DNA of 57,887 bases, the filler included, from Platydemus manokwari (Eukaryota): assembly GCA_037951405.1 (NCBI GenBank). It is 5 parts of 5 records of this genome, joined end to end, with 100 filler letters (N's around TTAATTAATTAA, not from the genome) between each part and the next. Parts side by side here need not be neighbours in the genome. Positions count along the whole stretch, not along the records: positions 47,715 to 57,887 come from JBBMOY011161214.1; 4 more parts are not named here. One strand, given 5' to 3'. This document shows, piece by piece, positions 16,935 to 57,887 of this stretch. The notes under the pieces are model-generated. The model saw nothing but the letters and a program-made list of their open reading frames with translations, ran no database searches and had not been told where the DNA came from. Every line of letters begins with the position of its first letter. Position 1 is the stretch's first letter. Position numbers and translations under genes: made by a program.

Positions 16935-17034
16935 NNNNNNNNNNNNNNNNNNNNNNNNNNNNNNNNNNNNNNNNNNNNTTAATTAATTAANNNNNNNNNN
17001 NNNNNNNNNNNNNNNNNNNNNNNNNNNNNNNNNN
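16935..17034. other. Assembly gap (44 N + TTAATTAATTAA + 44 N)
   Basis: The same 100-nt structure occurs at all four gaps. The spacer places stop codons in all six frames. Confidence 0.97.
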
Positions 17035-18550: not shown

Positions 18551-19314
18551 ATGCCTAACAAAATAAAAGTAATTTATATAATTATAAATGATTATATTTC
18601 TCATATTATTAGCTTACATATTTCAATCTCAAAGCCAAAGCAGAATTGATTCGTTTTATTCTCATTGCAAGTGATGTGGATTTTGAAGATATTCGAATAG
18701 AATTTGGTGATTGGCCAAAAGTCAAACCTACTATTCCATCTGGTCAAGTACCAATACTTGAGCTCTCTGATGGATCTGTATTGAATGAGAGTCTGGCTAT
18801 TGCTCGATATCTTGCAAAGAAATACAATTTAGCTGGATCAAACGAAATGGAGATTTACAAATCTGATAGAGTCGTTTGTACAGTAAGTGTATTTGATTCT
18901 TATTATGGGAGTTTATCAATGAAATCGTTTAGTTAAACGATTTATTAGATCTACTTATTGATATATTTCATGAAAATGACAATGTGAAGAAAGAAAAATT
19001 GAAAAAAGATTTAAATGAAGTTCATTTACCAATTTTTCTTAAGGTATATCATTGATTTGATTTAATATTTCTCATCACAGGATTCTTAATTTTTAATAAT
19101 GTAGAGATTGACAAATTATTTCGATAACAATCAAGGTGACTTTTTTCTTGGTCAACGTGTTTCATATGCAGATCTACATTTGGTGAATATACTCGATCAT
19201 TTCGAATCTGGCTACGAAGCCTACCCGAAAATCGTGAAATGTCGTGAAAAAGTACTGGCGAAATTTCCTAAACTAGCTCGACATAGATCCACTCGCCCGA
19301 TTTCTGTCGTTTGA
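18551..19314 (+). CDS. gst: Sigma-class glutathione S-transferase, 4 exons (18551-18568, 18613-18882, 18933-19043, 19105-19314), 202 aa
   Basis: Three phase-0 GT-AG introns (44, 50, 61 nt) give MPNKIK-LTYFNLKAKAELIRFIL...FEDIRI...WPKVKPTIPSGQVPILE...ESLAIARYLAKKYNLAG...DFFLGQRVSYADL...RPISVV*. Catalytic Tyr, GQVP and ESxAI motifs are present. AATAAA at 19417. Confidence 0.95.
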
Positions 19315-21017: not shown

Positions 21018-21156
21018 TGATAATTTGATATTTTATTAATGAGGACAAAGTGATAATTTGATATTTTATAAATGAGGATAAAGTGATAATTTGATATTTT
21101 ATAAATGAGGACAAAGTGATAATTTGATATTTTATAAATGAGGACAAAGTGATAAT
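21018..21156. repeat. 33-bp minisatellite, ~4.2 copies (TGATAATTTGATATTTTATAAATGAGGACAAAG)
   Basis: Units start at 21018, 21051, 21084, 21117 and 21150 (partial). They are near identical and have no spacers. Confidence 0.95.
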
Positions 21157-25249: not shown

Positions 25250-26665
25250 GTTACGAAGCTCTGGGTCATACGGGTAGTGCAGAAGGCATAGAAACTAATA
25301 ACGACAAAGTAAAGAAGATTAAGAAAGAAATTAAACCCGGTTGCATCACTCAGTTGAGGTTGCTCTATTATTATGTAATTATTACAGACGATCAAAGATT
25401 AAGCATTAGTTACGGTCCGTTATATGTGACAATGACCGGAAGTGACAAGAAATTAACGTGGACTACAGAGTGTGAAGAAAGTTGTGTGACGAAATAAGGA
25501 AGATTCAACAAGAAGATACTGTCGCTGGTTGGATTCATAAATGGTTAGAGAAAATGGAAACAGGAGTTCATTCAGCGGTCAAAAAAGCAAATATTTTAAT
25601 ATTTTAGAGAAGTATGAATTTTTCGAAGATATGGTAGTGTACAATGGGAATGAAAAGAAATAGATTATTGTGCCAGAGGTTCAATCGCAGAAACTGACGA
25701 ATACCTCCATGAGAAATTGTGTCATATCGGCACTAAGAAATTGGTCGATTATATTCAAAAGATTTATTTCTGATCAAATATATCACGAAGCATTGCACAG
25801 GAAGTACGGAATTGTGATATTTTTGCTAAACAAAGAATATATACTGGACGGACTAAAGAAGTTTTGATTACAAGGAAAAAGTTTGGTCCCCTGGAACAGA
25901 TAGTTGTTGACGTTGCGCACTTTAGGGAATTTATGAGTAAAAATAAATATCTCCTTTTTATTGTAGATAGATTCAGTAAGTTAGTAAGCTTAGTGCCTCT
26001 TATTCGATGATACGAGATAAGCATTTTCAAGCCCATCATCAATAATTATGTATATAGGTATGGTGCTCCAAAATCAATGCTCACTGATTGCGTAAGAGTC
26101 TTTCAGGGAAGGGAAATGAAAGAATTAGCGATAAATTTTGCTATAAAGCTAGAATTAACTTACCCATACCAACATCAGGCAAATAACTTAGCCGCAAGGA
26201 TGATTAGGACGATCCGAGACATGGTGGTAACATCGTTAGCATCAGATAAACTGGCTTGGGATAAATTAATACCTTGAATAGAATTTATCATAAATGTAAC
26301 ATATCAGGGCTCAATTCAACATTCTACATTTGAAATATTGTTTAGACGAGGAATTAATATGCATGGGTTAGAATTAATCAAACCAAGTCACCACGACTAG
26401 ATCATCAAAGAAACGGAAAACTAGCTGAAATCAGTAATCATTAGCTTAAGAAAATTCAATGCTAAAAAGAAGTTGTAGAATTTTTGAGGTTGGAGAAGAA
26501 GTTTTAGTGAAGATTAAGAAGAACGGAGATCGTTATGAAGGTTCTCACAGAATTTTGAAATTTTTAAGGCCACATCAAGTGCTTCTTAATTTCCAGGTAC
26601 AGACACAAACTCGAAGAATTACATGGTTAAAACGAATCTCAAAAACAAAGGGAGAGGGAAGTTAG
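25250..26665 (+). mobile_element. Degenerate Ty3/Gypsy pol (RT end and integrase) with PPT
   Basis: LGHTGSAEGIETNNDKV; integrase HEKLCHIGTKK (25708), FGPLEQIVVDVAH, LLFIVDRFSKLV, YGAPKSMLTD, PYQHQANNLAARMIRT; PPT AAAGGGAGAGGGAAG at ~26647-26661. Many stops and frameshifts. Confidence 0.9.
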
Positions 26666-27474: not shown

Positions 27475-27574
27475 NNNNNNNNNNNNNNNNNNNNNNNNNN
27501 NNNNNNNNNNNNNNNNNNTTAATTAATTAANNNNNNNNNNNNNNNNNNNNNNNNNNNNNNNNNNNNNNNNNNNN
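27475..27574. other. Assembly gap with TTAATTAATTAA spacer
   Basis: Direct reading. Confidence 0.97.
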
Positions 27575-33592: not shown

Positions 33593-35100
33593 TCAAGAAT
33601 TCAATGTTGATGTTGTATTTTTGTAATTTTCTGACCACCAAGTTGAAAAGGAATGTTTAGATGAGGGGATATTGTCGCTTAGCCATGAGAGTGCAGTGTG
33701 TATGATGTTTGGGTGAGAGGGGTCGAGTCTTTTACCAACAATGTATAGCAAGTGTGATACAATAAATTCACGGAATGTGGGATCAAAGCTGATCAGATAT
33801 CGAAAAGAACAAACTATGGATTGTATGCAATATTCAAGTAGGGATGGTGTGAGTCCTAAGCCACCGAGTTTGCGTGATGAATAAAAGAAGGGAATGTTTG
33901 ATGATTTAGAGCCATTCATTTTACGTGTATCTCGGGCAATGTATCTAATTCGTTTGTCGAAGGCTTGAGATTTCGAATTGTCTCCGTCTTGTATTAGGGT
34001 ACAGGAGTCAAGTCGCGTTGTTTCAACTTGTTGAATTCTGAAATGGAATGGGAGTCTTGAGTGCAGAAAGGTATTACAGGCTTGGAATTTTTGAGATGGA
34101 TGTAATCGAGATTTGGCAATGTTTTCAAAGTCAGAGAGTTTACCACCAGGGATAATTGAAATGGGGACACATTTGGGTAGGACAAAGGGGACTACTAAGT
34201 ATTTGTACAAGTTTTCATCGTCAGTAATAGGGATTGGATCATTCTCAAGAGTAAGGTCTATCCGATTTTTTGCGTTGTTTATGACGTAGCCGCATTTTTG
34301 AGTATTCAGTTTGAAGAAAATGGAGGATGCTTGGTGGTAAATGTGGTTGAGTCTATGTTAGAGATTTTCACAGGAGTTGGCAATAATAACTATGTCCTAA
34401 GCGTAGGCAAAGGTTGAAAATGGATTGGAATGAACAGTAAGTGGGTCTTCTATTGTAGCTGAACTGGTGAGTAAGAAATCAATGGAAAGGCAAAAAAGGG
34501 TTATGGAGAGTGCGCAGCCTTGTTTGACTCCGCGGTGAATTTGGATAGAGGGGGTAATTAAGCGGTGACATATGTAAACTGTGGTCGATTCCCTATAAAG
34601 TGATTGAATCATTTGTATGTAATGGGAATTGCAACCCATTTTCTTGAGAGTGAACCAAATAAGTTCATGGAACAGATTTGGGGAAGGCTTCACTAAAGTC
34701 GATCCAGCATATGTGGATATCTGAACTGTTGTGCAATGTGAATTCTGACAGTGAAAATAGGTGCGCGTTGTGCTCTGCGCAACCATCAGAGGCCAGGATT
34801 GCTTTTTGGTTATCGGAGAGAAATTTACAGGCAATAAACCATTTCAAAAGCTTATTGTTTAGAATGGTGGCAAAAAGTCTATATGCTGTGTCTGTGAGAG
34901 CTATGGGGCGCAAGGAGGATACTATGCGAGACGTTTTGTTTTTCATGACTAAAGATGTTTTGCACGAGGACCATTGATCGGGAATCTTCTTTGATGATAA
35001 AACCTTCTTGAATAGGGTTAGTAAGTAGATGTATTGGGGGTCTATCATGGCCCAGTCTTTATAAGTGATACTGTCACTGCCAGGGGCGGAGTTGAGAGAC
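33593..35100 (-). pseudogene. Reverse transcriptase domain of the RLE element (disrupted)
   Basis: ORF-track pieces 34665-35048, 34397-34834 and 33593-34210 carry successive RT motifs. YADD is read as YA*D at ~34400. Confidence 0.92.
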
Positions 35101-37174
35101 CTTTGAAGGCAATGCGTAGTTCTTCCACTGTAATAGGTTGGAGATTTGAATTATCGTAAAGGCGCGGGAGAATTGGGTTGAAATCTTCCGAGATTGACGG
35201 TGGTGATGGAATTTTGAAATGGGAAATTATATTTTCAATGGAAAGGAGTTATGTGGGACACAGGATGGGAGAATCTGTCGGAGAGTTTTCTTGGGTTGAA
35301 TAGAGTAGTTTCGGCGGAGTTTAAAGTCAGGTGCCTCTGGGCTAGTGAGGTACAAAACGGATGGTTTGATCGGCTTTTTTATTGTGGGTCTAATGTAGTG
35401 AGTGCCGTGCGTGCCATTGTGAGTATGTCAGTGAGGTTTGGATTATCAAGTTCAAAGAGTTTTAGGGCATCGTGGAGTATGGAGTGTATCATTTGAGAAG
35501 ACACGATATTAACATTTTTGGATTTCCTAATTTTAAGAATATTGGATATTGTGTTATTTATCTCAATGGGTACGCCCGGTTGGGATGGAGAATGGAATAT
35601 TGTGAATTGAGAGGCATAATCCAATATATGCTGGATGACGAACAGACCACAATCTGTGTTTTTCAGTTGCTTTGGGAGGTTAGGGATAAGTTGCTGGGTT
35701 ATGGTGATAGTCGATCTTATAGCGTTCAGATTTTCGAACAGCTCATCTAATATGTTCCAGAAGGTTTTCTGAGCGTAGCTAATCTAGAAGGGTGAACAAG
35801 ATTATAGTTAAAATTATTATTTTGATAAGAATTTATAGGCTTATGTTGCCGTTGAGGTCGATTTTGAGTTTGATTTGGATTGTTGTGATATTGAGTGAGT
35901 GATGCAGAGTCAGAGTAGTTATGGAGTGATTCGAATCTGTTGAGTGAGTGAAATCTGTTGACCTGGTTAAGAGCATAGGCTACCTGAATGTTTTGTGATG
36001 GGTTCGGATGTTGTGGGCGTGAATAACCGTTTGCTGTTATTGGGGCAGTCGGAGTGGGGAGTAGCGTGCGTCTGATTGTAGTTTTCGGGATTGTTTGGTA
36101 ACCAGCAATGTGGGGGGCATTGCGATTTGTGACTTGAGAGTTCGGAGGAGCGGTATCCCTGGTTTTAGCAGAATAAGACTTGAAAATATTTTCATTTACG
36201 GATCTAAATGATGAAGGATTAGTGTGAAAATCATTAATGAGAAAGTTGTTAACATGGAGATATGGGGTGGTTCGACCGGTAAAGAAGCCAGTGAGAGGTG
36301 ATATGATAGGCCTTGAAAGAGAATTCGTGTTATGAACATGATTTAATTTACGGTCACGGGATTGGCTTCTCGGCCTAGATTTCATTCCCGGGAGTCTAGA
36401 GAAATATTGATTATCATAATTATTTTCAATGAAGATGGTATATGGCCGTGTAGAGTAAAATCCGCGTGGTTGAGGACGAGTGTTCTCCATTGTTTGACGA
36501 AACGGGTTCTCGTATTGATTTCCATTTGGATTCGGCCGAGGAAGGCAAATATATCTGCATTTTAACCAGAAAATGAAAAATTTCTGTCATCAACACGCTG
36601 ATGTAATCTATTGATTACATCATCTTCTACATGATGAAGACCAACATAAGTATTAGCTCTATCAGATATATCACGGAGTGTATTTCACATGGCTTTTAAT
36701 AAAAGTGCGCAGCTCCCACCATCGTGACGTTTCTATTATCGAGTCTTCTGAAATCATCGGCTCTATTTTGATTATTTCTTTTGGCTCGCTCCGGCCGATT
36801 TCTCGGGCTTATCTCCACGATTAACCACTCCTTCCCAGTTTCATTCTGCGTCGATCTCTATTTTCTCGTTGTTTGAGGTATTTGAGGCATTTGTGGTTAT
36901 GTCATTTTAAGTATTTTGGGCATTTCCCAACACTTGTTATAATCAGTATTATCATTATTTCAGTCACTATTATAATTATAAATAAAGCTGTAAAAACCAA
37001 ACTATTTAACTAAAATCTGTAAAGAAAAAATATTCGATATCTTTATAATTTTAAAATATGAAAGGGCTTTTAGACATTTAAAACGCAAAACATATTTAAT
37101 ATGCCTGGATTGTCTTAAAAAGATTGATACCACCAATAATAATCAATACGATTAATAAAATCTCTTATTGAACT

Positions 37175-37265: not shown

Positions 37266-37365
37266 NNNNNNNNNNNNNNNNNNNNNNNNNNNNNNNNNNN
37301 NNNNNNNNNTTAATTAATTAANNNNNNNNNNNNNNNNNNNNNNNNNNNNNNNNNNNNNNNNNNNN
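37266..37365. other. Assembly gap with TTAATTAATTAA spacer
   Basis: Direct reading. Confidence 0.97.
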
Positions 37366-40976: not shown

Positions 40977-42662
40977 CAGTCAATACTTGTCAATATGAAC
41001 ACCCATCGATATGATAATGTTTTCTTGGGTTCATATTTTTAAAGAAATAATAAGAATATCTATTAAAATAATAAAAAAACATTTCATTTATTACGGCAAT
41101 TTTTAATTTTTTAAAACCTATAAAGGGTGTGTGTAACTTTAATCTGGTTTGATCCTGTTTCTCCTTTGGATATCATTGGCCAATTCGCATATTTTATTGG
41201 TTTTATCTGGAAGATTAATTTGAAAATATCTTTCGGGTTTCAAGTTCATTGATAGTCTTCGTCTCCTATCTAACACAGTCATCATTCCAATTCTTCGGAA
41301 CCTTCTTTTTAATGCTTCCATGTTAGATAAAAAAATAAAACTTGTTCATAAATTTTTCGATAAATGTCAAAAAGAAAAAAATCATCAGATTATGTATTTT
41401 AATTCTTCCACATATAAGTTTTCAAAAGAGTTGGTAAAACAATTTGAGGTCATCGTTTATTTTGCTTCATCACATGCTGTGAAATCCAAGCCACACTTTG
41501 ATACAAATCTACTTTTTTACACCGCTCTTCCTGCTTCGTAGTATTTCTAAAATCTAAATTGATTGTTGTACTTAAGCACTTCCCTTCATAATCCTTAAAG
41601 ACCTTTACAGCACCTTTGTCAATATGTTGAATAAAAAATGATGTACTTTATAGGAAAATCGAGTTCAGTTTTTCACGTTCCAAAGTCCTTCGGGTGGATA
41701 GACGCGTTATCTAATAAAAACAAGGTTTTACACCCTTAGCTTTTGTTCTCCTGTTTAACTTTTTAAAATAATATTAAAACATTTAGCGCCACCCAAGACT
41801 ACATTACTATGGTAACAAATACATCACTTTTCCATGTCGAAATGTTTAAAACAAAGGGGTTTCTATAATTCTGATTTTTTCCGATCTTTAGAAAATTTAC
41901 CAATTGTCTTATGTTCTTTAGAGATCGTATATGTTCTATTTAACGATCATTTTCATAGCCATTATAAACATCTCTATTTTAGTTTTCCTTCAATATTGAT
42001 TTATATAATTTTTTGAAATGAAGGACAAACCTCGCATTAACAGTTTTTGATTATTCGATAACTTCTTGAATGATCTCATGTATCTTGACAGAAAAGAATC
42101 AAGCCAGACACAAGAAGCTGCTAAACCATGCTTGTCAAATCATTTTGTCAATTTTTACGCTTTTGGTCGCAATATGTGTCAATCGATAGAATTATTTATT
42201 GTTCTCTGGATCTGGAATCACTCATACAATACAACATCAACTTCATAATCGCAGCATAAATGCGATTTTCTTTTTGCCTGATATTCGAATTTGATTCAAA
42301 AATGGAATACTTATATTTTATAAGGTGCTTTATCCAATCTAATGACACATCGTATTTTGATAAAAGAAAGCGTTCAGAATAGCCCCTATGATCGTCAAAT
42401 AATTTTAACATTTTCTCTTCTTTTTCAATAATAAAATCCTTTCTCTTTCGTTTTGGATTTATATTTCTCCATGTTCATAATAGCAGGTTATTAATGATTT
42501 TAAACTCATAAAAATGAAGGAAATATGTTTTCTTCTACTCTAATTGATGACCATTATTCAAAATAAACCATGGTTACACTAATAAAACTAATTTTTTAAG
42601 AGGATTCTCATAGTTTTTAATAGGTTTTGACTTAGATATTCATATCAAGCTATGTTCATTAT
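40977..42662 (-). mobile_element. Degenerate pogo/Tigger (CENP-B HTH + DDE) DNA transposon
   Basis: Minus-strand HTH region MLKLFDDHRGYSERFLLSKYDVS and DDE-region LFLLDNASIHP (~41723-41691). TIR-like CAGTCAATACTTGTCAATATGAACAC at 40977 is related to the end at 55181-55206. Confidence 0.85.
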
Positions 42663-43583
42663 GGATGGATATGTTTGGCGGTATCAATATTTTTCTCGGA
42701 ACCCGTGATATGATACCATAATAACTTTATTAATAAATTATTATAAATAATAATAAAAATAGTAGTTACTTATAAATATTCAGCAATATTAGTAATAATA
42801 TATAATTAATCGATATCCATTACAAAATTATCGATGCCAATTACAAAAACTGATCAATAAAGCCATTATAATGATAGTAATAATTATAATGATATTTATA
42901 ATTACACAATTCATCTGATATTAATAATAATGAACCAGAGATAATCACGTAGAGATAAACATATTATTTTTTTATACAGAACATATTTTCAGCTGTAATT
43001 TATTAGCACAGTGTTCTAAAAAAACTCATAAATTCTATAAATAATGATGCACATTTGTTTATTCTGTTTATGTTTGGCTCTCATTACATATTTTCTCACA
43101 TCCATCAACGTATTTTAAATTGATTTGAATGTGATTAAAATGGTTTATATCGATACTGTTACATCATCATTTGGTGAATTACAATCGATAATAGTTGCGC
43201 ACTTATTTCATGAAGCAACATATCTCTATTGAGGCATCTAACATGATAAGGTTGGCCAGAATATCTCTTCAATGTCTCACACGAGCCCATTAATCAACAT
43301 TTTACTTTGATAACTGTAATAAAATGAGATCATTTTATATCTCTCATTTATCGATTGATCTCTTTGTCGGCTCTTTTCACGCACACATTAATGAAATCAT
43401 TACATTTCACGGCCTGTTTATCAATTCAATTGGTTCATATCCACAGGATTTTTCTCATAGAAGTTATTTTAATTGTAGACTCACTATTATGGCTCGCTAA
43501 TAGATTTTCGCGATAAAACATGGGTGTAATCTACTCGGGATCTTATAAAATATTTTCTTAATTGTGAGAATATCAAATTAAAT

Positions 43584-43722
43584 TCAATTTGAATTAGTAT
43601 AGAATTTGAATTTGAATTTACATTGAATTTGAATTTATATTGAATTTGAATTTATATTGAATTTGTATTGAATTTGAATTTGTATTGAATTTGAATTTGT
43701 ATTGAATTTAAATTTATATTAA
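43584..43722. repeat. 18-bp/6-bp nested minisatellite (TTGAATTTGAATTTRTA-type)
   Basis: Repeated GAATTT hexamers with 18-bp higher-order periodicity. Confidence 0.9.
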
Positions 43723-46258
43723 TTTTTTTTATTTGTTTAAATAATTGTCTTTAAAATAGAATTGAATGTCGAGTCTTTTCAGTTCGTTTTCGATGCGTTT
43801 TTTATAAAATGGTAGCGGCTTACAGTATCATTGTTCATTAGTAGTGATAACTTGTTGCTATGGCTCAATCCATTTAAATTAATTAGTTCTTTCTTTCATT
43901 CTTTTTCATTTATAGATTAAAATATCTTGAAATTCAAAACCAAATTAATTAGAAAAAAACGAAATAAATAATTCGAAATAATATCTATCCAAACTTATAT
44001 GGAATGCAATGTTTTGTCAAAATTTCAAATCTTTCCATGAAAAATTTTCGGAGTCTTTCGATTTTGAACAAACGAACATTTACATTTTTATTTATTTAGA
44101 TTTCATCTTCACGTGTTTTATAGGTGTACTTTTCATATATATAAGCAAGGATTCTGTAAATAATACTGACTTTTCTCTATTTTATGGATATTATTCAGTT
44201 GAGTGCACAAACCCTTTTAATTATTTTTTTCTTTTGATTTTATAAAATCAATAAAATTTTATTAATTAGTGCAGTCATATCATTTGTTATTTGTTTGGAA
44301 AAGCAAACTAAGTGGGAAGACAAAACAAAATCATATATGTTTTAACATAAAACAACATAAAATATCAACATCCTATCTTTACATAATACATAAATGTTGT
44401 GGTGGAATATTTTAGATTAAGTCTCTCTGGTCCTAGAGGATTTTAATAACTCGTATGTGGATAAAATAACTAGAATAATAACCTGGACAAAGGTAGTTAA
44501 AACTGTCAAAAATGGTTGTTTTTTGTTGCAGCTAAGTCAAGCATAGTTTCGCTAAACCAAAAAAAATTATAAATTACAGCGTCTGAATATAGCTTTCTAT
44601 ATGGCGGCAAAATGATGGAGAACGCCACAATGTGTCAACAATATTTTCTTAAGAAAACGAACAGTTGCAAAAAACAGCAAAAAGATCATGTTAAAATATG
44701 TGACCCACAGCGCAAGCAGATATGTATGAGGTATGCAAATTGAAATAAGCGTCGATTTGTGTTTAAATGAGTTTAAAAATTACTTTAAATGGCCGTTAAT
44801 TTATATTAGTGAATTTTTAGTGCAATGATTAAACACAAGTTGTGTTAACTTATTAATGAAAAAAATGTTATTCATGCCTCTAAACGATTTTGAAATATCC
44901 GACTCTAAATAAATTCGCTTTAAAGAGTTGAGTTTATTAAATAGCTCAAATAGATTCCTATTGAGAATGAATAATTCGTAACAAAAGATTTGCATTTACA
45001 GTGCTTCTTAATTCACGAATAATTATTTTTCTTCTGTTGGCAATTTCTCAACAATGTTCAATTATGATTGTTAGTAAGGTTGAGGAATATATTTATGATC
45101 ATCTTTATTTTTTCATGATTTTTTAAATATTGGAAAATGACCTTAAGCAGAATCTATAAATCACTTTAAATATTTATGATTATGATTTGAACAAATGTAT
45201 CGCACCCATTATAGCTGATTCCATCCAGTGGGCTTCATTCGTTTTTTTCATCATTGAGACACTCAATAAGTTAAATTTTAAATAAATATAATCTTCAACA
45301 TTCAAATACTAATTAAAATTATAAACTCAGTATGGTTTTTTAAAAATCATCAGTGTGTGTTCGCGTTAATTACTTTAACGACCCATGATTTGTGGAGACT
45401 ATTTTCTTAAATATCATATTTTCGAAAAACTAAACTAAACGAATCAAACCAATAATAAATTTCGAGAAAAATAAAATTAAACTTTAGCTTTTTAGAATAT
45501 CTATACCTTTTTATATACATAATATACCTTAATATACATATACCTACTTCAGATCATTTTCATCATTTATTGCCAGTATTATAATTTTATGTTTATCGCT
45601 AAATTCAATACACACACATTTAAATTTACGAAATCCTATCCAATTTCAATTTAAACTTGTCACCAAATACATTCTCCAATCTTGTGCATTTACTATTTCA
45701 AATAAACAAAACATTTTATTAACAGCTAATTTTCACATTCGTTAGAAAAACAAATTCTATCGAAACAAAAATCGATCGAATTTTCGATTGACAACCATTT
45801 ACAAACAGTTCATTAAAAAAAAACGAACAAGAAATACGCAAGAATATTCTATATTTTTTCCTATAACAAATCACAATTTCAAATCAATGATTCTACAAGA
45901 TACGTTTCGCTGTCAAACCACATCATCACCATCATCATCATCATCATCATAAAATAACAAAATTGATACAACTTTCATAACTTGCATTTCATAAAAATGA
46001 TGAAAAATATTTACATAATAAACTAATTTCAAAAATAAATAAAAACATTTCATTTTTTTAATGAAAGCAAATTTATTTATCAACATATGTTTTGCAAATA
46101 TTACGACAGTTTGGAAAAAAGAAACCAAATAAAATAGAAAATAGTGCCTAATTAAAAGCAAGATTAATATCTTAGACGAATTTTCATTTGTAAAATTACG
46201 CAGACCGAACTTCATTATCGATAATAATTGGGAGAGCACGATTGTATTTATTTTTTTA

Positions 46259-47614: not shown

Positions 47615-47714
47615 NNNNNNNNNNNNNNNNNNNNNNNNNNNNNNNNNNNNNNNNNNNNTTAATTAATTAANNNNNNNNNNNNNNNNNNNNNNNNNNNNNN
47701 NNNNNNNNNNNNNN
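47615..47714. other. Assembly gap with TTAATTAATTAA spacer
   Basis: Direct reading. Confidence 0.97.
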
Positions 47715-47786
47715 ACTATGCAAAATGTACTTTAAATAAATAAATATTTTTCAAAAAAAACCGAAATTTTAAGGTTATACACCTAA
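47715..47786 (-). mobile_element. Tc1/mariner-like transposon end emerging from a gap
   Basis: Ends GGTTATACACCTAA|TA. Exact reverse complement of 16860-16931. Confidence 0.7.
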
Positions 47787-48083
47787 TAATATTGTAAAAT
47801 TTTGTTAAACAAAGATATCACTGAATTTGTTAACTATTTGTAAGGACCTATTTGTAGAAAATCGAACTAAGCAACAATATGCAAAAGAAGAAAGAAATAA
47901 AAATGTGAAATCTACTGGGGAAAAACATGAAGAAATCTTCAAACACTTTAAAAAGACTAAAGTAATACTTGGAAATATCGGAACATCGAGTCTTTATTAC
48001 AAAACAGTTTTCCTTCTTTATCAGAAATTTCTCATGATGGCGTAGCTTTACAATTTTTAACTTTGAAAATATTTTTATCTCAC

Positions 48084-48176
48084 CTTTCTGGAAGAAGTGA
48101 AAGATCTGATATATCGTCCCGAATGATTTCCGAACCATGGCCGCCGTCATCGCTATCAAAGTTGTCATCATCATCA
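48084..48176 (-). CDS. Otoferlin-like ferlin exon 5 (acidic linker)
   Basis: atttcag| ... |gtgaga; 93 nt, phase 2-2; DDDDNFDSDDGGHGSEIIRDDISDLSLLPE. A 45-nt intron separates it from exon 4. Confidence 0.75.
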
Positions 48177-48221
48177 CTGAAATATATTTATTAAACCAAT
48201 GGAAAGATATTAACAAATCAC

Positions 48222-48367
48222 CTGGAATTTTCCGATGGCAGAATAACTCTTTTTTCGTTTCTTTTTAACGTTTTCAAATTAAAAACCGGATAATTGAATG
48301 CATTACTACCGTAATCCAGGTGGCCGGTAGTGGGTGATAAATATTCCATATCAAATGCAAGTACATT
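48222..48367 (-). CDS. Otoferlin-like ferlin exon 4 (last C2A strand + linker)
   Basis: atatctag| ... |gtgatt; 146 nt, phase 0-2; NVLAFDMEYLSPTTGHLDYGSNAFNYPVFNLKTLKRNEKRVILPSENS. Confidence 0.8.
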
Positions 48368-48399
48368 CTAGATATTAACGTATAAAATAAACAAAGTCG

Positions 48400-51221
48400 T
48401 TATATTTATTTAAATAAGCGATTGGTAGATTATTTCAGTGTTTTGCGAATTATACTGACATAATTGGCGACCGCGCATTACAAATAAATGCAATAACAAG
48501 ACATCAATAAAAGAATCACCTCATGATTGTGAATTTTATGCGATGTGTCAAACACGGTGTTGAAGGTCGAATTTTAAGTGTTCAACAAGAGGTCAAGGAG
48601 CAATATGGTTCAATTAAAGATCCAGAAATGCATCAAGTAGAAAATCAAATATCCTCAACAAGTCCATCGCATAGATTTCGTCAATTTAATTGAATCAATA
48701 GATAACAAGAAACTTTTAAATAGAACTAGGTGTGAAGAGATGTTTAATAAGGACGACGCCAGGGTGTGAAGTAGAGAAGTTGTGGGATTCGGGTACGTTT
48801 ATCACATTGATGATTGAGAACTATTGGAAGAAAGCGGGTGCTCAAAATTACAGGATAGCTTGATTACCCTTAGCGGGGTGCTTTCAATTGGTGTAGAAAA
48901 AGAAACTCGAGATTATAATTGCAAAAGGAATTTCGCCCGACTGTCACGATTAGTGCATTTTGATTTAGCTGAAAGAGGTGACCATAATCGGTTCATTACT
49001 ATGTATGGATATCCAGATTCAGTTTTCCTATGCCTGATATCCATCAACTTCTAGACTGTTTGGCAGATCATAAATATTTCTCTAGGATAGATTTGGGCAG
49101 GCTTATTATCAAGTTTAACTCAGTTTAAGGCACTAAGAATACACCGATTTTTGCACCAAAACCGCCAACACTGTATTAATAGTCTCTTGTTTGGACTACA
49201 GGATCAGAAACTTTTCAAAAGCTAATAAAAAAGGCTGTTGAATGGATTGGTCTTTAAAGGCGTTGTGGTATATTTGTATGATGTTTGTTGAAATTAGGTT
49301 TTAAGGCCTCATGGTCAGTGCCAAGGGTACACAAACTAATTGCGTCAAAATCCAACAGATACGAGATGCCCTAGTACCACAGTGCGATCATTTTAAAGCC
49401 TGACAAACTATTATAGGCGATTCATCAAGGATTATGTTGTAATATCAGCTCTTCTATGCGCCACAACCACTGGCAGAGATAAGGAATTAAAATCGTCAGA
49501 GTCTTACAAAACAAGTTCTTTGAAGCTAAAGTCAGCATTCTGTGAAGCACAAATTCTAGATTACTCAAGAGAAAACAGGATATTTTTACTCGATATGGAC
49601 GCGGATTTTACTGCAATTGCAGCCTTTCTAAGCCAGGTTACTGAAGGAGGAACAGAGGTAGTGATAGCCTACGAGGGTTGATTACTCACTAGTCACGAGA
49701 AATGATATTGTGTTATTTACTTTAGGCAATAGCTGTACAAGCAGAAATTCATCGTGAGGACCGATCTCAAAGCCCTTGTCTTTTTGAAATCGACGCGGAA
49801 ACCAGCCACCCCATAATTTCAAACATTGGTGGTGATCCTGTCAGAATACAATTTAGATCTAAAATACTGAATAGCAAAGAATTATAACAAGTTTGATTGT
49901 CTGGGATCAACGAAAAACTACGTTTCCAGTGTAACACGACATACAATGGACCAAAAACGGAAAATTCTCAAATCATATATTAACACAAATAAAGTTCGAG
50001 ATAATGAAGAAAACACAGGAAACACAGAGTGAGGATGCAGAAATAGCGACGAGGCTCAGATTTCTAAATGGTTAAACAGCTCTAACTAGCATGGATGCAC
50101 ATTGAATTTCTAAAATTAAAGATAAGCTGAAGGTGGTGGACAATAACCTGATGCTTGAGAAAGAGGAGAGTTTTGCTGCTATTATACAGAAGATTTTTGC
50201 CATTCAATTTGTCAGGTCAATTCACGAGGAACTCTGCCACTTAGACTTAAAGAAAACTTTCGCATTTTTCTAAAGCGGTTTTAATAGGCCAACAAATTCA
50301 ACATCATTAAAGAGGTACTGAGAGATTGTATTATACGTACAAAGCAAAAAGTTGATCAATTCAGAATTAAGGGGTTTCTGCTTTCTCTATTAGGTTCTGA
50401 GTTTCAAGAGCAAATCATGGTGGACATTTCTTAAATGGACAATGTGCATAGTAACAAAAAGGTATCTAGTAGCCATTATTAACAAATTCAGGAACCTGGT
50501 GAGCCTCACTTTTTCAAATCAAAAAAACAATTTTCCAGGTCATTCTGAGCTCTTGAATCTATCGATTTAGAGGAATATTTATGATGGAAGAGCGATAAAA
50601 ATTGCGAATAAAACCGGAATTCAACTCATATCCCCCACAAATTGAATGGGCTTGCTAAGAGAATTATGAGGATAATACGATATATGATAACAGCTTCCTT
50701 AAAGATCAAAATCCTCGAGATAAGTTGGCTTAATTTTTGTCAAGGATAAAGTTCTGCAACATATCAATCAACAATGAAGTTTCCGCCTTTCGAAATAGTC
50801 TACTGGTGGAAGATCAATGTCCATACGGATGAGTTACAAGAACCAGACTGGAGATGATATTGCAGCTAGAGAAAATTCTTAAGTATCATCCAACATAATA
50901 TCTAATCGAGCCAGAAGAAGAACACATCAAATTTTAAGTTGTGAAATAAGGTGCTGGTTCGCGTAGATTTCCATAAGAGGAAGAATATATAGCAGTATGA
51001 ATATATTTGCCAGATTACAGAATTCAAGTCACATAGAAGTGGCCATCCAATTCAATCATGTGATAAAATCCAGAATATTAGTGTGGCTGAAAAGATAGTG
51101 AGCCTTAAAATGTCACAAGTAACGTGGTAATGTGACAAACACGTTAAATTTGTTTAAATAAGTGATTCGCGGATTATTTCAGTGTTTTAAATGAATATTA
51201 TGATTGCGAATTCCAATGACA
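48400..51221 (+). mobile_element. Degenerate Ty3/Gypsy element (PBS, RT, RNase H, integrase; gag not seen) inside ferlin intron 3
   Basis: PBS TGGCGACC at 48465. RT LADHKYFSRIDLG/AYYQV and VVVYLYD; RNase H FLLDMDADFTAIAAFLSQ and KFIVRTDLKAL; integrase HEELCHL and NGLAKRIMR. Related terminal segments at 48405-48460 and 51146-51221. Confidence 0.9.
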
Positions 51222-51309
51222 TAATGCATATTTGTCAAAAATATAATTACATCACGAATAATAATCTTTTCCAATAATAATGATAATTATTAATTATATT
51301 GATTCTTAC

Positions 51310-51409
51310 ATCAGTGATTCGCAGTTTTTCATCGACAAGATTTTCACGAACAGATATCGATGGTTCTACAAGTAATCTAGAAACTCCAACATTGAGCTGA
51401 CCAAGACAT
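51310..51409 (-). CDS. Otoferlin-like ferlin exon 3 (C2A)
   Basis: ctttatag| ... |gtaaga; 100 nt, phase 2-0; CLGQLNVGVSRLLVEPSISVRENLVDEKLRITD. Confidence 0.88.
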
Positions 51410-51789
51410 CTATAAAGTTGTGATAACAATTGTGATTATATATAAAATTAAAATAATAAATTTTTAAATTTAAAATATTAGATTTAACATTTAATTTAAA
51501 AGGAGAAATCAATAATTAAGTAAATGTTTATTTGAAAACTATTATCGATTAAAAACTAAAATTATTATAATATCTTTACTCGGAAAATTATATATAAAAT
51601 GTTTAGCGAAATCTCTGATTTTTGATATTATAGGAATGAAATAGCAGGAGTGAAATTAGAGGTTATTGATTCTGATATTAATAATGACTATGATAATAAT
51701 ATTTATATAATAATAACTATTTTAACAGTTAGAAGATACACTCAATACAATTCTACAGATTATTGATAACCGATAAACCCATCAATTAC

Positions 51790-51934
51790 TTGTCCGATCC
51801 ATATCGAGAAGATGCAAAACATCGAATCATTAATATATCAGATCTATCCAACTTTCTTCCAATCGGCCAGTTGAATCGCTGACCAAAATAAACATTAGCG
51901 CTTCCTTTGACTTTTGTGGTTTTCAAAACGATAG
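51790..51934 (-). CDS. Otoferlin-like ferlin exon 2 (C2A)
   Basis: actttag| ... |gtaatt; 145 nt, phase 1-2; IVLKTTKVKGSANVYFGQRFNWPIGRKLDRSDILMIRCFASSRYGSDK. Matches the otoferlin C2A pattern FxWP....D....L.I..F..S....K..G. Confidence 0.9.
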
Positions 51935-53219
51935 CTAAAGTTCATTAATATTACCATAATAATAATTATTATAATGATTATAATACCGAATAATAATAGT
52001 TATATCTTATATAACTAATCCATTACATGAACATTTGCTATATTGCATGAATGTTTTATCTTTTATGAATGTGAGGATTAACAAAATTAAATTTAAAAGA
52101 TTTTATAATTTGATATCAAAATATATTAATTTGTTTTAATCATTGTACTCAAATAAGTTATTTTGTGTCGTGACCTATTGATTTTGTTTACCATCTGTAC
52201 TTTAAAAAATATTAGCAACATATAATGAATATTTGCTATAATTCGCTGTATTAATTGCACATTTGTGCGAGGCTTATTTGTATCAAATTTTGACGAATCA
52301 ATATTCTTATTATTTCGTATTTTTTTATCATGTAACCTTTTGAAGGTACATTTAAAATGGTACAGTTTTTAAAAATCTCACGAATAATAAATGATAGAAT
52401 TTCTTAAATTCAAATATTGATAAATTTATAAACCAATAGAATTCTTGATAAATATTTAAATAAATTTAATAAAAACGATTGAAGTAGAAGTAAAGTCTGG
52501 GAAAAATGTGAGCTTTTAATTATACGCCATTGTATCTCTTATTATTGAGCTTTGCCTCCAAAATGGTAAAGATAATCGGTTTTTTTCCCAAAATTGTGAA
52601 GTCAGTTAACGGTAAACAAATATCTAGGAATTATTGGGGTTCATCATAAGTTCCGAGTAATATATATATTGGTGGTAAACTCTTTGATATTTTATTCACT
52701 TGTATTGATAATGTTTTGATTAATGTTGAGTATGTAAAAAATTAAATTTCTAAAATATAATTAAAAATTCTAAATCAATATTTTTTGAAAATTTCTAAAA
52801 GAAAATAATTCAGTTAAATCAAAAATATAAAAATTAATAGAATGTTCTAAAACAATTTGTTTGAAAAGAGTTCATTCTTGACAACAACAGCCATTTAGAA
52901 GCCCAAGTCCTGTCTCGTTATTTTATATCGATTATGTCAGTTGAAAGTCTAGTTTTATATTGCATTGTAATGATTACAACAGTCGTACTAATTGCAACCT
53001 TCGATTATTTTGGAACATTAATAATTAATTTTGTATCCAAAGCGTTGGTTGAGAAATAAATAATAGTTAATAGTTGTACTAATTATAGAATATATGATCG
53101 CTGCTGCCATACATATTAAATCCATAAATAGATAAAATCTATATTTGATATTAAATATATTAAATAAGGCTTTTAATATTATTAAGGTATAGGTAACGTC
53201 GAATTCTAAGATTGAATTA

Positions 53220-55206
53220 CGGGTCAACATTGTTCAATATGAGCTCTGCTTAATATGAACATAGTTTAATGTGAACATTTATGCCAAAAATTATTGGAAA
53301 TCATATAGTTTTTATAGGAAATTATGTTTTATAATACGAAGACTGTTTGTTTTGAACAGTGAACAAAAAATGATGGAAAAATAAATCAATAAATTATACA
53401 ATCATTGTTTAAAAGTTTAATTTTAAGCTGCCTTTTATGAAAATGAAAAACAAAAATTGAAAACGTAAGAGAAAGGATTTAAGTATAGAAGAGAATCAGA
53501 AATTGTTAAAATTATTCGATGAAAGTAAAGATTGTTCTCAAAGCTTTCTTTCATCAAATTATAATCTTTCATTGGGATGTATAAATAATCCAATGAAATT
53601 TAAAGACTCCATTTTGAATTCAAATTTGAATAACAAACAAAAACGAAAAACACATTTACGTGATGGATATCAAGTTGATGCCTTCTTAGATGAATGGTTT
53701 AAGATCCACAGAATAAGAAATATCAGTGTTAATGGTGATATACTACAGCAAAAAGAGTCAGAATTAGCAAATCATTTAAGAAATCATGATTTTAAAGCAT
53801 TAAGAAACCATTAAAAGAAATTTTTGAGACTGTCTATGGAAAATAATGCAAAATGAATCAATAAATTATGCAATCATTGTTTAAATATTTAATTTTAAGC
53901 TGCTTTTTATCAACATGAAAAACAAAAATTGAAAACGTTAGAGAAAGGATTTAAGTATAGAAGAAAATCAGAAATTGTTAAAATTATTCGATGAAGATAA
54001 AGGTTGTTTTGTGTGAGGAAAATTCAAATTAACTAATAATAATTTTAAATAATAATAATAATAATAATTAAAACTTAAGATAATATAAGAAACTTCAAAA
54101 TATAAAAAAATAGTATTTTGAAATTTATATTGGAATATTTACAATAAAGTAATTAAATGATTAAATATTTTTTTATCTATACCTGATTAATATTGATTAA
54201 GAAATCTCTCTAGAAAAGGCATTTTAATTTATTGGTATAAAATAAATATTAAGAAAATCGTAATAATGGCTTCTTTTATTGAAACATCAATTTCAAGTTA
54301 AGTAGCCGCTAATAATATTCTCAGCACTTTCTTTCATCAAATTATAATCTTTCATTGGGATGTATAAATAATCCAATGAAATCTAAAGACGCCACTTTCA
54401 ATTCAAATTTGAATACCAAACAAAAACGAAAAAAAACAAATTTACGTGATGGATATCAAGTTGATGGCATCTTAGATGAATGGTTTCAGATCCACAGAAT
54501 TAGAAATATCAGTGTCTGTGGTGATATACTACAGCAAAAAACATTAGAATTAGCAAATCATTTAGGAGTTCATGGTTTTAAAGCATTGAATAGTTATAAG
54601 AAACCATTGAAAGAAACTTTTGAGACTGTCTATGGATTTTAATTTAGAAAATAATGTTACACAAGAGATATGGTGTAAAAATGTTTATTTATATCAAGCA
54701 GCTGTTTAGATTTCTAAAGCATGGAATAGTGTAAAACCTGCGATTATTTCTAATTGTTTTACCAGGTCTTTCGAATACTGAATGTGATGATTTTCCACTC
54801 TTTAAAATTGATCAAAAATTTGATCAAATCTCTTGTTTAGTTTAGTCGAAAAGTATGAAAATGAAAAAAACAAATGATAATTCTGTTTAAAAGAAGGAAG
54901 AAGATACAGCAATAACAGGATTTGAAGCCAATGGGTATGCAAAAAAAACTTGAAAAATATTCCAGATAAGATGAACAAAATATGGGATTTGATTGAAGAA
55001 ATTCCAAGAGAAAAAGCATCTAGACAGTTGGAAATCACAGACTTTATTACGTGTCAAAGAAATGAAAATTGTGATAAATAGGGGTAATCAATACTTTTTT
55101 GTGAAATCTTTGATATTGCTATGTTAATAACTGTTCATATTATTTTGTTAATATGAACATTTGAAAAAATTTAAACGCTAGTGTTCATATTGAACAAGGT
55201 TGACTG
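53220..55206 (+). mobile_element. Non-autonomous pogo/Tigger element with TIRs and an internal duplication, inside ferlin intron 1
   Basis: Left end TA|CGGGTCAACATTGTTCAATATGA, right end GTGTTCATATTGAACAAGGTTGACTG. CENP-B-type HTH ORFs 53503-53814 and 54355-54642 (LDEWF..HRIRNISVxGDILQQK). Most of the DDE domain is absent. Confidence 0.88.
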
Positions 55207-55419
55207 CACGTATGAATACGAAAAACGAAGCAATCATGATTTATTAATATTTTGGTTTGATGGCTTAGTTAAGTTGATTTTTAAATTATATCGTGTCTTA
55301 TATTGAATTACGTAATTCAAAATACCTGTGTAAGGCAAATAAAGGTATTAATATTAAGTTCTTTAACACATAATTAAAGTGCAATTAAAGTACACAACAA
55401 AAACAATAATAAATCTTAC

Positions 55420-55498
55420 ATCTGAAAGTAAGCTTGACATATTTATCTCCACTTTGAACAGATCCATCCAAATATTTTACATTTACACTCAAAGACAT
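55420..55498 (-). CDS. Otoferlin-like ferlin exon 1 (start of C2A)
   Basis: ATG at 55498; 79 nt; MSLSVNVKYLDGSVQSGDKYVKLTFR|gtaaga. Comparable to the otoferlin N-terminus [26 protein letters not shown] (recalled). Phase 1 joins exon 2 in frame. Confidence 0.9.
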
Positions 55499-55720
55499 TA
55501 CTTATGCTGCTGCACCATAAACAATAAATTATGAAAAAAAATAAATATAAATAAATAAAATTGATCGTTATTGAATAAATGACAAAATAATACAACTCAT
55601 CATGACAATGGACCATGATGACTCATTCTAAATCAAATCGACCAACAGGTTTGCAGTTGATTACGATTCATCCAACCGTAAAAATGAAATAGATTTTATA
55701 GTTGTGATATCAGATATAAC

Positions 55721-55798
55721 TAGTGGTAAAAGGGCTATTTTAAAGTACACTCCTTCACTTAGTTCAGAAATGTGTTTTAAAAAGCCCCTTTACCATTA
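55721..55798. repeat. Imperfect inverted repeat (~27-bp stem, ~21-nt loop)
   Basis: TAGTGGTAAAAGGGCTATTTTAAAGTACAC versus GTGTTTTAAAAAGCCCCTTTACCATTA. Confidence 0.8.
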
Positions 55799-55967
55799 TC
55801 AATTATAAAATTCTCTGCTTGAACATGTATTTTCTTATAGCATTCTTACCACTATTAATTCTTGATTCCATTCCATCCCATTTTTTGTTCATAATAATGT
55901 ATTTTATGTATGTGTGGTGTTAAACCTATATTGATATATTTTACCATCACATTATTCTTGTGAATCT

Positions 55968-56339
55968 TTAAAGATAAAATGATTGGAAAACCATTGGAGA
56001 TAATGAACATCTTTCCGAATCTTATATTCGAGAATTCCAAGATAAAGTAGATTGGGTTTATATCTTTAGGAAGTAAACCTTATCAGAATCTTTTGTAAGA
56101 GAATTTAAAGATAAAGTAAATTGGAAAATTATTTCATGTCGTAAAGAAGTATCAAAATATTTTATCTGAGAATTCCACGATAAAGCGGATTGGAAATGTA
56201 TTTCAAAATATCAATTATTATCTGAAGATTTTATTAGAGAATTTCAAGATAAAGTTGATTCGAAATAGATTTCACGAGGTGAAATTGAATCAAATATTAT
56301 TTTATTAATAGCGTTTTCCACATTTTTTAAAATCTAAAA
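55968..56339 (+). pseudogene. Tryptophan-repeat family gene (23-aa LSExFIREFxDKVDW repeats), disrupted
   Basis: Frame from 55981: DWKTIGDNEHLSESYIREFQDKV DWVYIFRK*TLSESFVREFKDKV NWKIISCRKEVSKYFI*EFHDKA DWKCISKYQLLSEDFIREFQDKV DSK*. Trp codons are exactly 69 nt apart (55984, 56053, 56122, 56191). Confidence 0.88.
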
Positions 56340-57004
56340 ATGACCATTGTTTGGAAAAAAATTAAAATCAAATTTAATAATCATCCAAATATCCCTTCAT
56401 CATTTAGAATGTTAATTGTTGGAAGTACAGAATGTGGTAAAAATTAATTACTTTTTAAAATATCATTAACACCCGGATTTTTAGATTATGATAATTTAAT
56501 AATATTTTCAAAAATTGCAAATGGCTTATCAAAAGAAAGTATTATAAAAATATTTCAAGACCAGTATAGATTTGATAAATATTTAACTATTCGATAAATT
56601 TGTGAACTTTACGCAGAAATTTTGTCACCTCTAGAAAAAAGTGAGATATCAATAAACACGATTTCTAAATTTAATGAAATTATGAACCCTTCAAATTTAA
56701 ATATAACTAAAATGAATTTAATGATTTTTGATGAGTGTGTAACAGAGAAAAACAAAGAAATAATGTCTGTTTATTACACAGTATGATGACGTAATATGTG
56801 TAATAGTATTCACCTTTTTCAGCGTTGGTTTGATGTACCTAAAAAGATGATAAGAAATAATTAAAATTTTATTATTTAATTTAAAATAAATAAAAGAAGT
56901 AAAGATTTAATACAGTGTGATTTATTTTCTAACACTATAGAAAAAGAAGAATTTAATATTTTGTAAATAAACAATTGAACGAGAAATATAAATATAAATG
57001 TATA
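56340..57004 (+). pseudogene. A32/FtsK-HerA-like DNA packaging ATPase of Polinton/adintovirus type, with in-frame stops
   Basis: Single frame: MTIVW...IPSSFRMLIVGSTECGKN* (Walker A), LDYDNLIIFSK, MNLMIFDE (Walker B), YYTV**RNMCNSIHLFQ (RGRHxN...xQ motif position), PKKMIRNN*N. No introns. Confidence 0.85.
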
Positions 57005-57043
57005 AAAATAAAGTTATAATAATTGAAGTTGTGTTTATAATTT

Positions 57044-57789
57044 ATGAGAATACCTGCTAAAACAGATGTGTTTACAATTTATGAAGAAGAAAAATAAAGA
57101 CTTAAATTTATAAATTGAAAAATGGGAAGCTTTGATATAAAAACGAATGAAAGAATTAGAAAATATAATTTCCTTTAAAAATCTAATAAATACTAAAGCT
57201 GAAGTAAAATTAATATTTTAAAATTTTGATGAATCGAGGTATCAGTGAATTTGGCTAACATTTACTAGTATCTGTTGTGCAAAATCCAGTTAAAAATCTC
57301 TTAGCAATTGGAGACTTGAAAACATCTGCTAATGAAACAAATAAAACTTTAAATGAAGCTATTCAGAATTTTAAACTTCTGATAAATGCAGTACGTGGTG
57401 AAATAAGCAGTGGAAATTTTGCAATAAATTAAGAAAAAATTTTTAGAAAAAGATGGTAGAAGTAAAGGTGAAAATATTTTATCAAGCTTGGGAGAAAGAG
57501 TATATAATGGAGTAAATTTCCGAATTTAATTATTAATAAACTAGAATTTCTAATTATTAAACATAAAGGTGAAAATCATTTAAATTTAGATGATAGTTTT
57601 CTTGACAAATTAAATGAAAATTCGTGTTATTTAATATTTGGAAGTGTAGATATAGAAAAACTAATAAAGAAAGGACAGTTCTCTGTTAAAGATTCTTATC
57701 TAGAGATTTCTAGGAAAGCAAGAATTTCTGCTCAACAATTTGCATCAATTAAATATCCAACAGATCTTAAGAATGTAAAAAAAGAATGA
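57044..57789 (+). pseudogene. Disrupted ORF of unknown function downstream of the ATPase
   Basis: ATG 57044 begins MRIPAKTDVFTIYEEENKDLNL*IEKWEAL*. An 82-codon open stretch at 57541-57789 reads LEFLIIKHKGENHLNLDDSFLDKLNEN...KNVKKE*. E/K-rich and intronless. Confidence 0.55.
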
Positions 57790-57887
57790 ATCGAAATAAT
57801 TATACAATTGAAAATACCAGGTTGAGTCAAAAGTTATTCATGTTTTTATGCAGGTATTTTATTAACACAAATTGTTATAACGCTGAA

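Follow-up and report, generated by a model that had tools for sequence, protein, structure and literature searches.

Introduction

Animal genomes commonly contain dead Maverick fragments. In intact Mavericks a protein-primed polymerase copies the genome and an rve integrase inserts it, and the packaging ATPase is the presumed motor that loads this linear DNA into a jelly-roll capsid. A general definition of Polintons and Mavericks is given in the accessible text of PMC6431247, and the combination of an rve integrase, an FtsK-type ATPase and a hexon/penton set defines the adintoviruses in that of PMC8502044. Polintons have been described as carriers of cargo genes (available parts of PMC11131425 and bioRxiv 10.1101/2025.02.07.637071). 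In planarians, the available text of two papers reports Polintons as piRNA targets in Schmidtea mediterranea (PMC8532177) and an expansion of Mavericks in Dugesia (bioRxiv 10.64898/2025.12.11.693146). No paper describing the gene content of flatworm Mavericks was met in the main texts of the literature surveyed, and the available part of the supplementary file of PMC8502044 contains no flatworm names.

The tryptophan-repeat gene family belongs to a different setting, that of entomopoxviruses and jumbo phages (phrog_3532; gp538 and gp558-563 of phage G). Endogenous elements with tryptophan repeats have also been reported in ants (available part of PMC6540820). We met no report of this family in a Polinton in the Polinton/Maverick literature surveyed, and the word 'tryptophan' is absent from the main texts of PMC8502044, PMC11296320, PMC11131425 and bioRxiv 10.1101/2025.02.07.637071.

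The locus described here, which we call the cassette, touches both settings. It shares with animal Mavericks and Polintons, as presented in the accessible text of PMC8502044, the A32/FtsK-type packaging ATPase, whose nearest relatives adjoin genes for an rve integrase (with a PLA2-like domain), a double-jelly-roll capsid and protein-X-like products; like them, it is multi-copy and integrated. It differs from them in being a 1.9-kb broken internal piece, on a contig without pPolB, integrase, capsid, protease or element ends. Whereas in many relatives the ATPase is adjoined by or fused to a further protein, here it is flanked by a tryptophan-repeat gene and an orphan gene. Planarian Polintons and Mavericks, compared by their description in the available text of PMC8532177 and bioRxiv 10.64898/2025.12.11.693146, belong to the same element class and occur in the host group that the initial annotation had proposed. 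With the entomopoxvirus and jumbo-phage family, the cassette has in common the 23-residue repeat with its periodic tryptophan and, judged from the model of a relative, the same helical solenoid. In contrast to that family, the gene is here a pseudogene adjoining a Maverick-type ATPase, a neighbour absent from 38 viral loci of the family.

Results

Composition of the window and of the cassette contig

The window, that is the whole stretch of 57,887 nucleotides analysed, consists of separate contigs of about 10 kb joined by four identical 100-base artificial linkers, so that gene order across the linkers is meaningless. Only positions 47715-57887 are contiguous with the cassette. The cassette is a broken 1.9-kb remnant containing three coding remnants, all dead and all on the + strand, the initial annotation having already described them as co-oriented (Table 1). 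The G+C content of its contig ranges from 16 to 40% in 300-base steps. The contig is a fragment and contains no long ORF. No polymerase, integrase, capsid or protease was found on it by an ORF survey, by clustering against the loci of the ATPase relatives or by Pfam searches of selected pieces, and no large-virus core gene was seen. Neither terminal inverted repeats nor a 6-bp target duplication around the cassette occur among the repeats listed, the piece being internal and the contig ending about 70 bases later.

Table 1. Coordinates of the features discussed, numbered along the whole window.
Feature	Position	Strand	Description
Artificial linkers	16935-17034, 27475-27574, 37266-37365, 47615-47714		44 N + 12-base six-frame stop spacer + 44 N
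LTR-retrotransposon-type remnant, RT_RNaseH_2	49397-49678		Pfam E 5e-7
Tc5-type DNA-binding remnants	53461 and 54316		E 0.002 and 0.005, below cut-off
Left flank of cassette	55470..55966		Low-copy, non-coding, physically joined to first tryptophan repeat
Tryptophan-repeat pseudogene fragment	55967..56337	+	Four complete 23-codon units and partial units; 5' end missing
A32-type genome-packaging ATPase pseudogene	56340..56996	+	6 in-frame stops, 13-codon gap, frame break, 3' end cut
Decayed coding region without assigned family	56997..57815	+	Several frames; start and end undefined
Different very high-copy repeat, cutting off the remnant	57812..57887	.	Outside cassette

Several other features were observed in the window. 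Tc5/pogo-type transposase remnants at 53378-55080 are tandemly duplicated in blocks 89-92% identical, with an inverted relative (71%) at 42266-42490 on another contig. An identical 74-nt sequence lies in opposite orientation at two contig ends (16858-16931 and 47715-47788); its bin depth of 122,370 in the sequencing run X1, described below, marks it as a very high-copy repeat. Another contig carries a broken LTR-retrotransposon-like integrase with rve and zinc-binding domains (25699-26400), to which a weak integrase match at about 25945-26334 corresponds. A GC-richer stretch on the - strand (33593-36586) has ORFs of 134-279 codons, which may be those of a decayed non-LTR retrotransposon; four pieces of it gave no Pfam match. 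An exon of a sigma-type glutathione S-transferase (Pfam GST_N, 18613-18936, on another contig) scored 93.6 bits with vertebrate prostaglandin D synthase and 85.3 bits with 28-kDa GSTs, presumably of schistosome origin. Tandem repeats of 33 nt (21018-21156; 4.2 copies, 97%) and 17 nt (43582-43725; 8.5 copies) are also present.

The packaging ATPase

The central remnant was read from the ATG at 56340 with X at each stop. This reading contains a degenerate Walker A motif (GSTECGKN), a Walker B motif (LMIFDEC) and the IRNN-x-N motif. The six stops in the first 208 codons are at 56445, 56595, 56784, 56787, 56862 and 56877. Two of them fall inside the arginine-finger motif, which the initial annotation had listed with the other three but had filled in by inference. 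Thirteen codons present in all 15 aligned relatives are missing near 56515, in-frame homology stops at about 56963, where the frame breaks, and the 3' end is cut at a junction at about 56996. The decay had first been put down to point stops; these are there, but frame switches and deletion have damaged the locus as well.

The broken ATPase itself had no Pfam match. Relatives amounted to 16 of 104 candidates, 13 of the 16 with Pox_A32, and the best of them, an intact metagenome protein, is 62% identical over 98% of the query. In P0003, an intact relative, Pox_A32 is above cut-off (E 1e-9). A profile of 12 relatives matches the window ATPase with an E value of 5.5e-69; the latter retains 56 of the 80 columns on which at least 11 of these 12 sequences agree. 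Solved cellular proteins (small GTPases and ABC domains) match via the P-loop only, with best E values of 6e-5 for the profile and 0.085 for the window protein, and none of 109 pattern matches in prokaryotic genomes was confirmed as a relative. Cellular P-loop NTPases do not appear, from these comparisons, to be its closest relatives. Searches of viral contigs confirmed none of 3 matches with the single sequence P0003 as query and 2 of 62 with the ATPase alignment; both are distant (23%) and, by gene content, presumably virophage-like.

A quick maximum-likelihood tree was then built from 162 rows; another 19 of the 181 collected were too short and had been left out. In it, the window ATPase clusters with P0003, P0004 and P0153 (SH-aLRT 96). 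It also lies in a group of 15 rows that includes L003-L008 (SH-aLRT 90, which is not strong support) and in one of 67 rows that includes all seven loci with Maverick context described below (SH-aLRT 99). The end branch of the window row measures 0.42, about three times the 0.13 of P0003, as expected of a pseudogene. Since the tree was built without named Polinton references, large-virus ATPases or a cellular outgroup, it places the ATPase among Maverick-context ATPases and not in a named group.

Genomic context of the ATPase relatives

A metagenome scan yielded 243 pattern matches, of which 21 were ATPase relatives. An rve integrase or a double-jelly-roll capsid gene is present in seven of these 21 loci; contigs of 1.2-2.1 kb make up the remaining 14. 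The integrase was recognised in three loci (L003 and L008 by Pfam, L004 by clustering). The capsid family was found by clustering in five (L006, L008, L010, L014 and L015), and its domain was detected by Pfam in L008 (E 4.5e-28) and L014 (E 6.1e-22). Protein-X-like ORFs score below cut-off (E 0.0009-0.0034), and clustering extends this family to eight loci. The presumed minor capsid (single-jelly-roll) proteins of the relatives had no Pfam match. Two related ORFs in L014 and L015, which also had no Pfam match, are from their motifs presumably adenain-type cysteine proteases. No polymerase was found in L003-L023, all of which are fragments with no ORF above 546 aa. Judged by sequence, the ATPase of the cassette belongs to a packaging-ATPase clade with members beside integrase, capsid and protein-X genes. 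The cassette carries, on a broken copy, the A32/FtsK-type packaging ATPase of Mavericks and Polintons. The predicted gene set of the relative loci is that described for adintoviruses in the accessible text of PMC8502044.

Two kinds of gene fusion were observed in these loci. In L010 (1560-3143), L014 (106-1713) and L015 (124-1761), a fusion joins the packaging ATPase to a conserved protein of 270-290 residues; the partner is a separate gene in L003, L004, L008 and L012, and similar fusions occur in several library proteins (e.g. P0181, P0196, P0206 and P0255). In L003 (241-1557) and L008 (148-1470) the rve integrase bears a fused PLA2-like domain, unlike the PLA2X genes in the accessible text of PMC8502044, in which PLA2 is fused to protein X.

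The tryptophan-repeat gene

Upstream of the ATPase, tryptophan codons at 55984, 56053, 56122 and 56191 are spaced by exactly 69 nt. Protein homology spans 55978-56277, with three stops in 100 codons (56074, 56167 and 56266). The repeats end at about 56277, and the frame remains open until a TAA at 56335-56337, and not at 56337-56339 as initially annotated. The remnants had been described as having almost no spacing; they are indeed compact and on the same strand, but the last repeat ends 63 nt upstream of the ATPase ATG.

Relatives were abundant (763 of 810 candidates at E<=1e-3), the best being 47-59% identical. The protein is matched by phrog_3532 (E 1.2e-28) and by seven phage records, Bacillus phage G included, one of them annotated 'tryptophan repeat gene family protein'. 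The tandem 23-residue units with periodic tryptophan place the predicted product in the viral tryptophan-repeat gene family. A structure model was made from 82 sequences for the relative P0022, which stands in for the window protein; it consists of a run of short helix pairs (pLDDT 80.4). Of its 257 structure matches, 56 had E<=1e-3. The model matches the entomopoxvirus 'tryptophan repeat gene family', Bacillus phage G and other large-virus proteins, with E values of about 1e-12 (5.8e-13) and many below 1e-9 against annotated tryptophan-repeat members. The fold of the family, as modelled on this relative, is the same as that of the annotated members. The best match among 48,161 solved chains was to DARPin/ankyrin solenoids (Z 6.2); kinship with these proteins was rejected, since this score falls within the background for helical repeats and reflects a generic likeness. 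From the modelled shape and the viral distribution, the product would be a helical solenoid, most likely a scaffold that binds proteins and acts on those of the host.

We searched for the association of the two genes elsewhere. No tryptophan-repeat gene was present in 23 ATPase-bearing loci, most of them short, and the ATPase profile had no match among the 3151 ORFs of 38 viral loci with tryptophan repeats. The link is thus absent from both sets, as it is from the Polinton/Maverick literature surveyed.

The third coding region

The region beyond the ATPase was analysed with a codon model whose training set was 38 ORFs of Maverick-type loci, ATPases included. The score of 57000-57810 was 42.0, compared with 12.0 +/- 3.3 in shuffled sequences, none of 300 being as high. 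In control stretches, 161 of 300 shuffles scored as high at 55000-55900, where the left flank shows no codon signal, and 20 of 300 at 51700-52500. The ATPase scored 28.8 (0 of 300 shuffles), a partly circular result as ATPases are in the training set. The third region is coding by codon statistics. Its signal moves among the three + frames, with open stretches at 57259-57432 (57 codons) and 57508-57789 (93 codons), the longer of which is borderline when taken alone (18 of 300 shuffles). Within the region, a 43-nt stretch (57211-57253) is 81% identical to 47787-47829, close to the left end of the contig (E 1.5e-5); the codon signal falls in all frames there, and this stretch is possibly a small inserted repeat.

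No relative was found among 895 longer candidates (proteins of 309-2000 residues, the query being partly out of frame), in viral contigs (0 of 37) or in phages, and Pfam, PHROGs and NCBIfam gave no convincing match. A single-sequence model was unusable (pLDDT 44.5) and had no structure match at E<=1e-3. A hint of similarity to the protein adjacent to the ATPase in Mavericks (E 0.017) vanished when a profile of 8 such proteins was used, and this candidate was rejected.

Among the best-supported departures listed, run X1 has 21 contigs that diverge from the window at 56996, and their loose letters resemble, by eye, the ATPase C-terminus of the relatives. This indicates that the contact between the ATPase and the third region is probably a deletion junction of this copy, the third region's place beside the ATPase being probably secondary. 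The ATGs at 56998 and 57044 lie directly past the junction, which leaves the start of the third gene undefined; the distance of about 40 bp to the next ATG in the initial annotation was not an intergenic gap.

Other copies and the right edge

Further copies were sought in run X1, one public sequencing run (40% of sampled words) that is possibly the source sample. From this run, 8629 of 4,305,408 contigs aligned to 47715-57887 at 80% or more; no RNA run matched the window among the runs listed. A 590-nt contig of depth 10 covers 55470-56059 without a difference. As it runs from the low-copy flank into the first repeat, the piece is integrated. Summed depth was 52-63 in two bins of the flank, and four bins of the cassette had 356, 1749, 596 and 2664; these values are not copy numbers. 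The bin 56215-56554 stands far above the other cassette bins, with a summed depth of 32,565. Joints and loose ends are described from the best-supported ones, with 439 joints and 2092 loose ends beyond them. Among these best-supported joints, several step back or forward by approximate multiples of 69 nt, which points to other tryptophan-repeat copies with different numbers of units, some with more. One contig joins 56121 to 56455, that is the tryptophan repeat to the ATPase; with 41 letters on its short side, it is weak evidence for what may be another copy joining the two genes. In this one run, the cassette represents an integrated, dispersed multi-copy family.

The depth of 157,425 in the last bin, together with joints from unrelated places at 57812 and 57819, indicates that another repeat begins there. 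Its start, at about 57812-57819, may resemble a mariner-type terminal repeat.

Discussion

We conclude with good confidence that the stretch comes from the interior of a Maverick/Polinton (adintovirus-type) element, which integrated into the AT-rich genome of an animal, probably a planarian, and has decayed. A planarian-like host is suggested by base composition, the repeat landscape and the GST; the last points to an animal but not to flatworms in particular, and it was rejected as a means of naming the host, being on another contig and not decisive. The assignment of this copy derives from its ATPase, its integration and its copy number. The Polinton/adintovirus-type origin initially proposed for the ATPase is supported by its relatives, by the tree and by the locus context, and the proposed phylogeny check had a consistent outcome, the ATPase grouping with Maverick-context loci and, by its matches, not with cellular P-loop NTPases. 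Core-gene neighbours, which the same annotation had envisaged, exist in seven of the 21 relative loci as integrase or capsid, but no polymerase was found there and no core gene on the cassette contig. The suggestion of a possibly undescribed virus lineage and a novel system is not supported, since the ATPase nests among ordinary Maverick-type ATPases and Polintons have already been reported in planarians. Nor can the three genes be taken as one inherited cassette: the third follows a junction, and the link to the tryptophan repeat comes from this copy and one weak joint. The locus is an ordinary fossil of a known element type, whose unusual trait is only the adjoining tryptophan-repeat gene.

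How the parts came together is less clear than the origin of the ATPase. It is quite possible, if somewhat short of an even chance, that only the ATPase is Maverick-derived and that the tryptophan repeat, the third region or both came from other elements, joined by later deletions or nested insertions; such a mosaic concerns the linkage of the parts and not the origin of the ATPase. The 21 contigs that leave at 56996 among the best-supported rows, with loose letters like the ATPase C-terminus of the relatives as judged by eye, are in its favour, as are the lack of linkage between tryptophan repeat and ATPase in the 23 and 38 outside loci and the abundance of other transposon remnants on the contig. 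However, the three regions are compactly spaced on the same strand, all three are scored on the + strand by the Maverick-trained codon model and all three are multi-copy, and the contig joining 56121 to 56455, with its 41 letters on the short side, may be another copy. The lack of a core replication or capsid gene on the contig would also be expected of a non-autonomous mini-Maverick, one moved by a helper and never equipped with polymerase or capsid genes, which kept only the ATPase and a few accessory genes. We consider this unlikely, as no terminal inverted repeats are among the repeats listed for the contig, the tryptophan-repeat gene lacks its 5' end, as deletion from a larger element would leave it, and the nearest ATPase relatives sit in full virion modules.

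Two further origins would take the ATPase itself out of the Mavericks. Nucleocytoviricota, whether poxvirus-like or other, also encode A32 ATPases and tryptophan-repeat families, and the repeat family, a typical one for entomopoxviruses, also has matches in other large DNA viruses and, according to the available part of PMC6540820, endogenous representatives in ants. An endogenised piece of such a virus is nevertheless very improbable: compact Maverick-type modules hold the nearest ATPase relatives, none of the 3151 ORFs of the 38 viral loci with tryptophan repeats matched the ATPase profile, and the many related copies fit an integrase-bearing element. That the ATPase is a host P-loop NTPase gene, or the contig a contaminant, is scarcely credible. 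The matches to small GTPases and ABC domains that might suggest it are weak and due to the P-loop only (E 6e-5 with the profile, 0.085 with the window protein), whereas the relatives carry Pox_A32, none of the 109 prokaryotic matches was confirmed and the reading frame has multiple stops; moreover, one contig of run X1 runs from the flank into the first repeat, and LTR-type and Tc5-type remnants share the 10-kb contig with the cassette.

Returning to a decayed Maverick fragment, we infer that, after integrating, this copy was stripped by deletion of its replication, capsid and end sequences and gathered stops and frame breaks, its right end being cut by another repeat. The tryptophan-repeat gene would most likely have been carried by the element as accessory cargo, and the third gene would be a lineage-specific accessory or structural gene brought beside the ATPase by deletion. 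No part of the cassette would be expected to have a present function. That the tryptophan-repeat gene is fixed cargo of this Maverick family is somewhat less likely than not, and we give the same weight to the bolder reading of a flatworm Maverick family with a fixed tryptophan-repeat solenoid gene, taken from large DNA viruses, beside its packaging ATPase, plus an orphan gene. That co-infection of a Maverick with a large DNA virus of flatworms lay behind the transfer of the repeat gene seems improbable.

As it stands, the finding matters little, because dead Maverick fragments are common in animals and planarian Polintons have already been reported. It also illustrates that deletion can create a misleading gene order when a single decayed copy is read on a short contig. 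Should the tryptophan-repeat gene be regular cargo, the observation would be of moderate importance, linking Mavericks to a gene family of entomopoxviruses, other large DNA viruses and jumbo phages. A fixed cargo of this kind would be the trace of gene exchange between a Maverick and a large DNA virus, and it would give the tryptophan-repeat family a small-genome setting in which to seek its host target.
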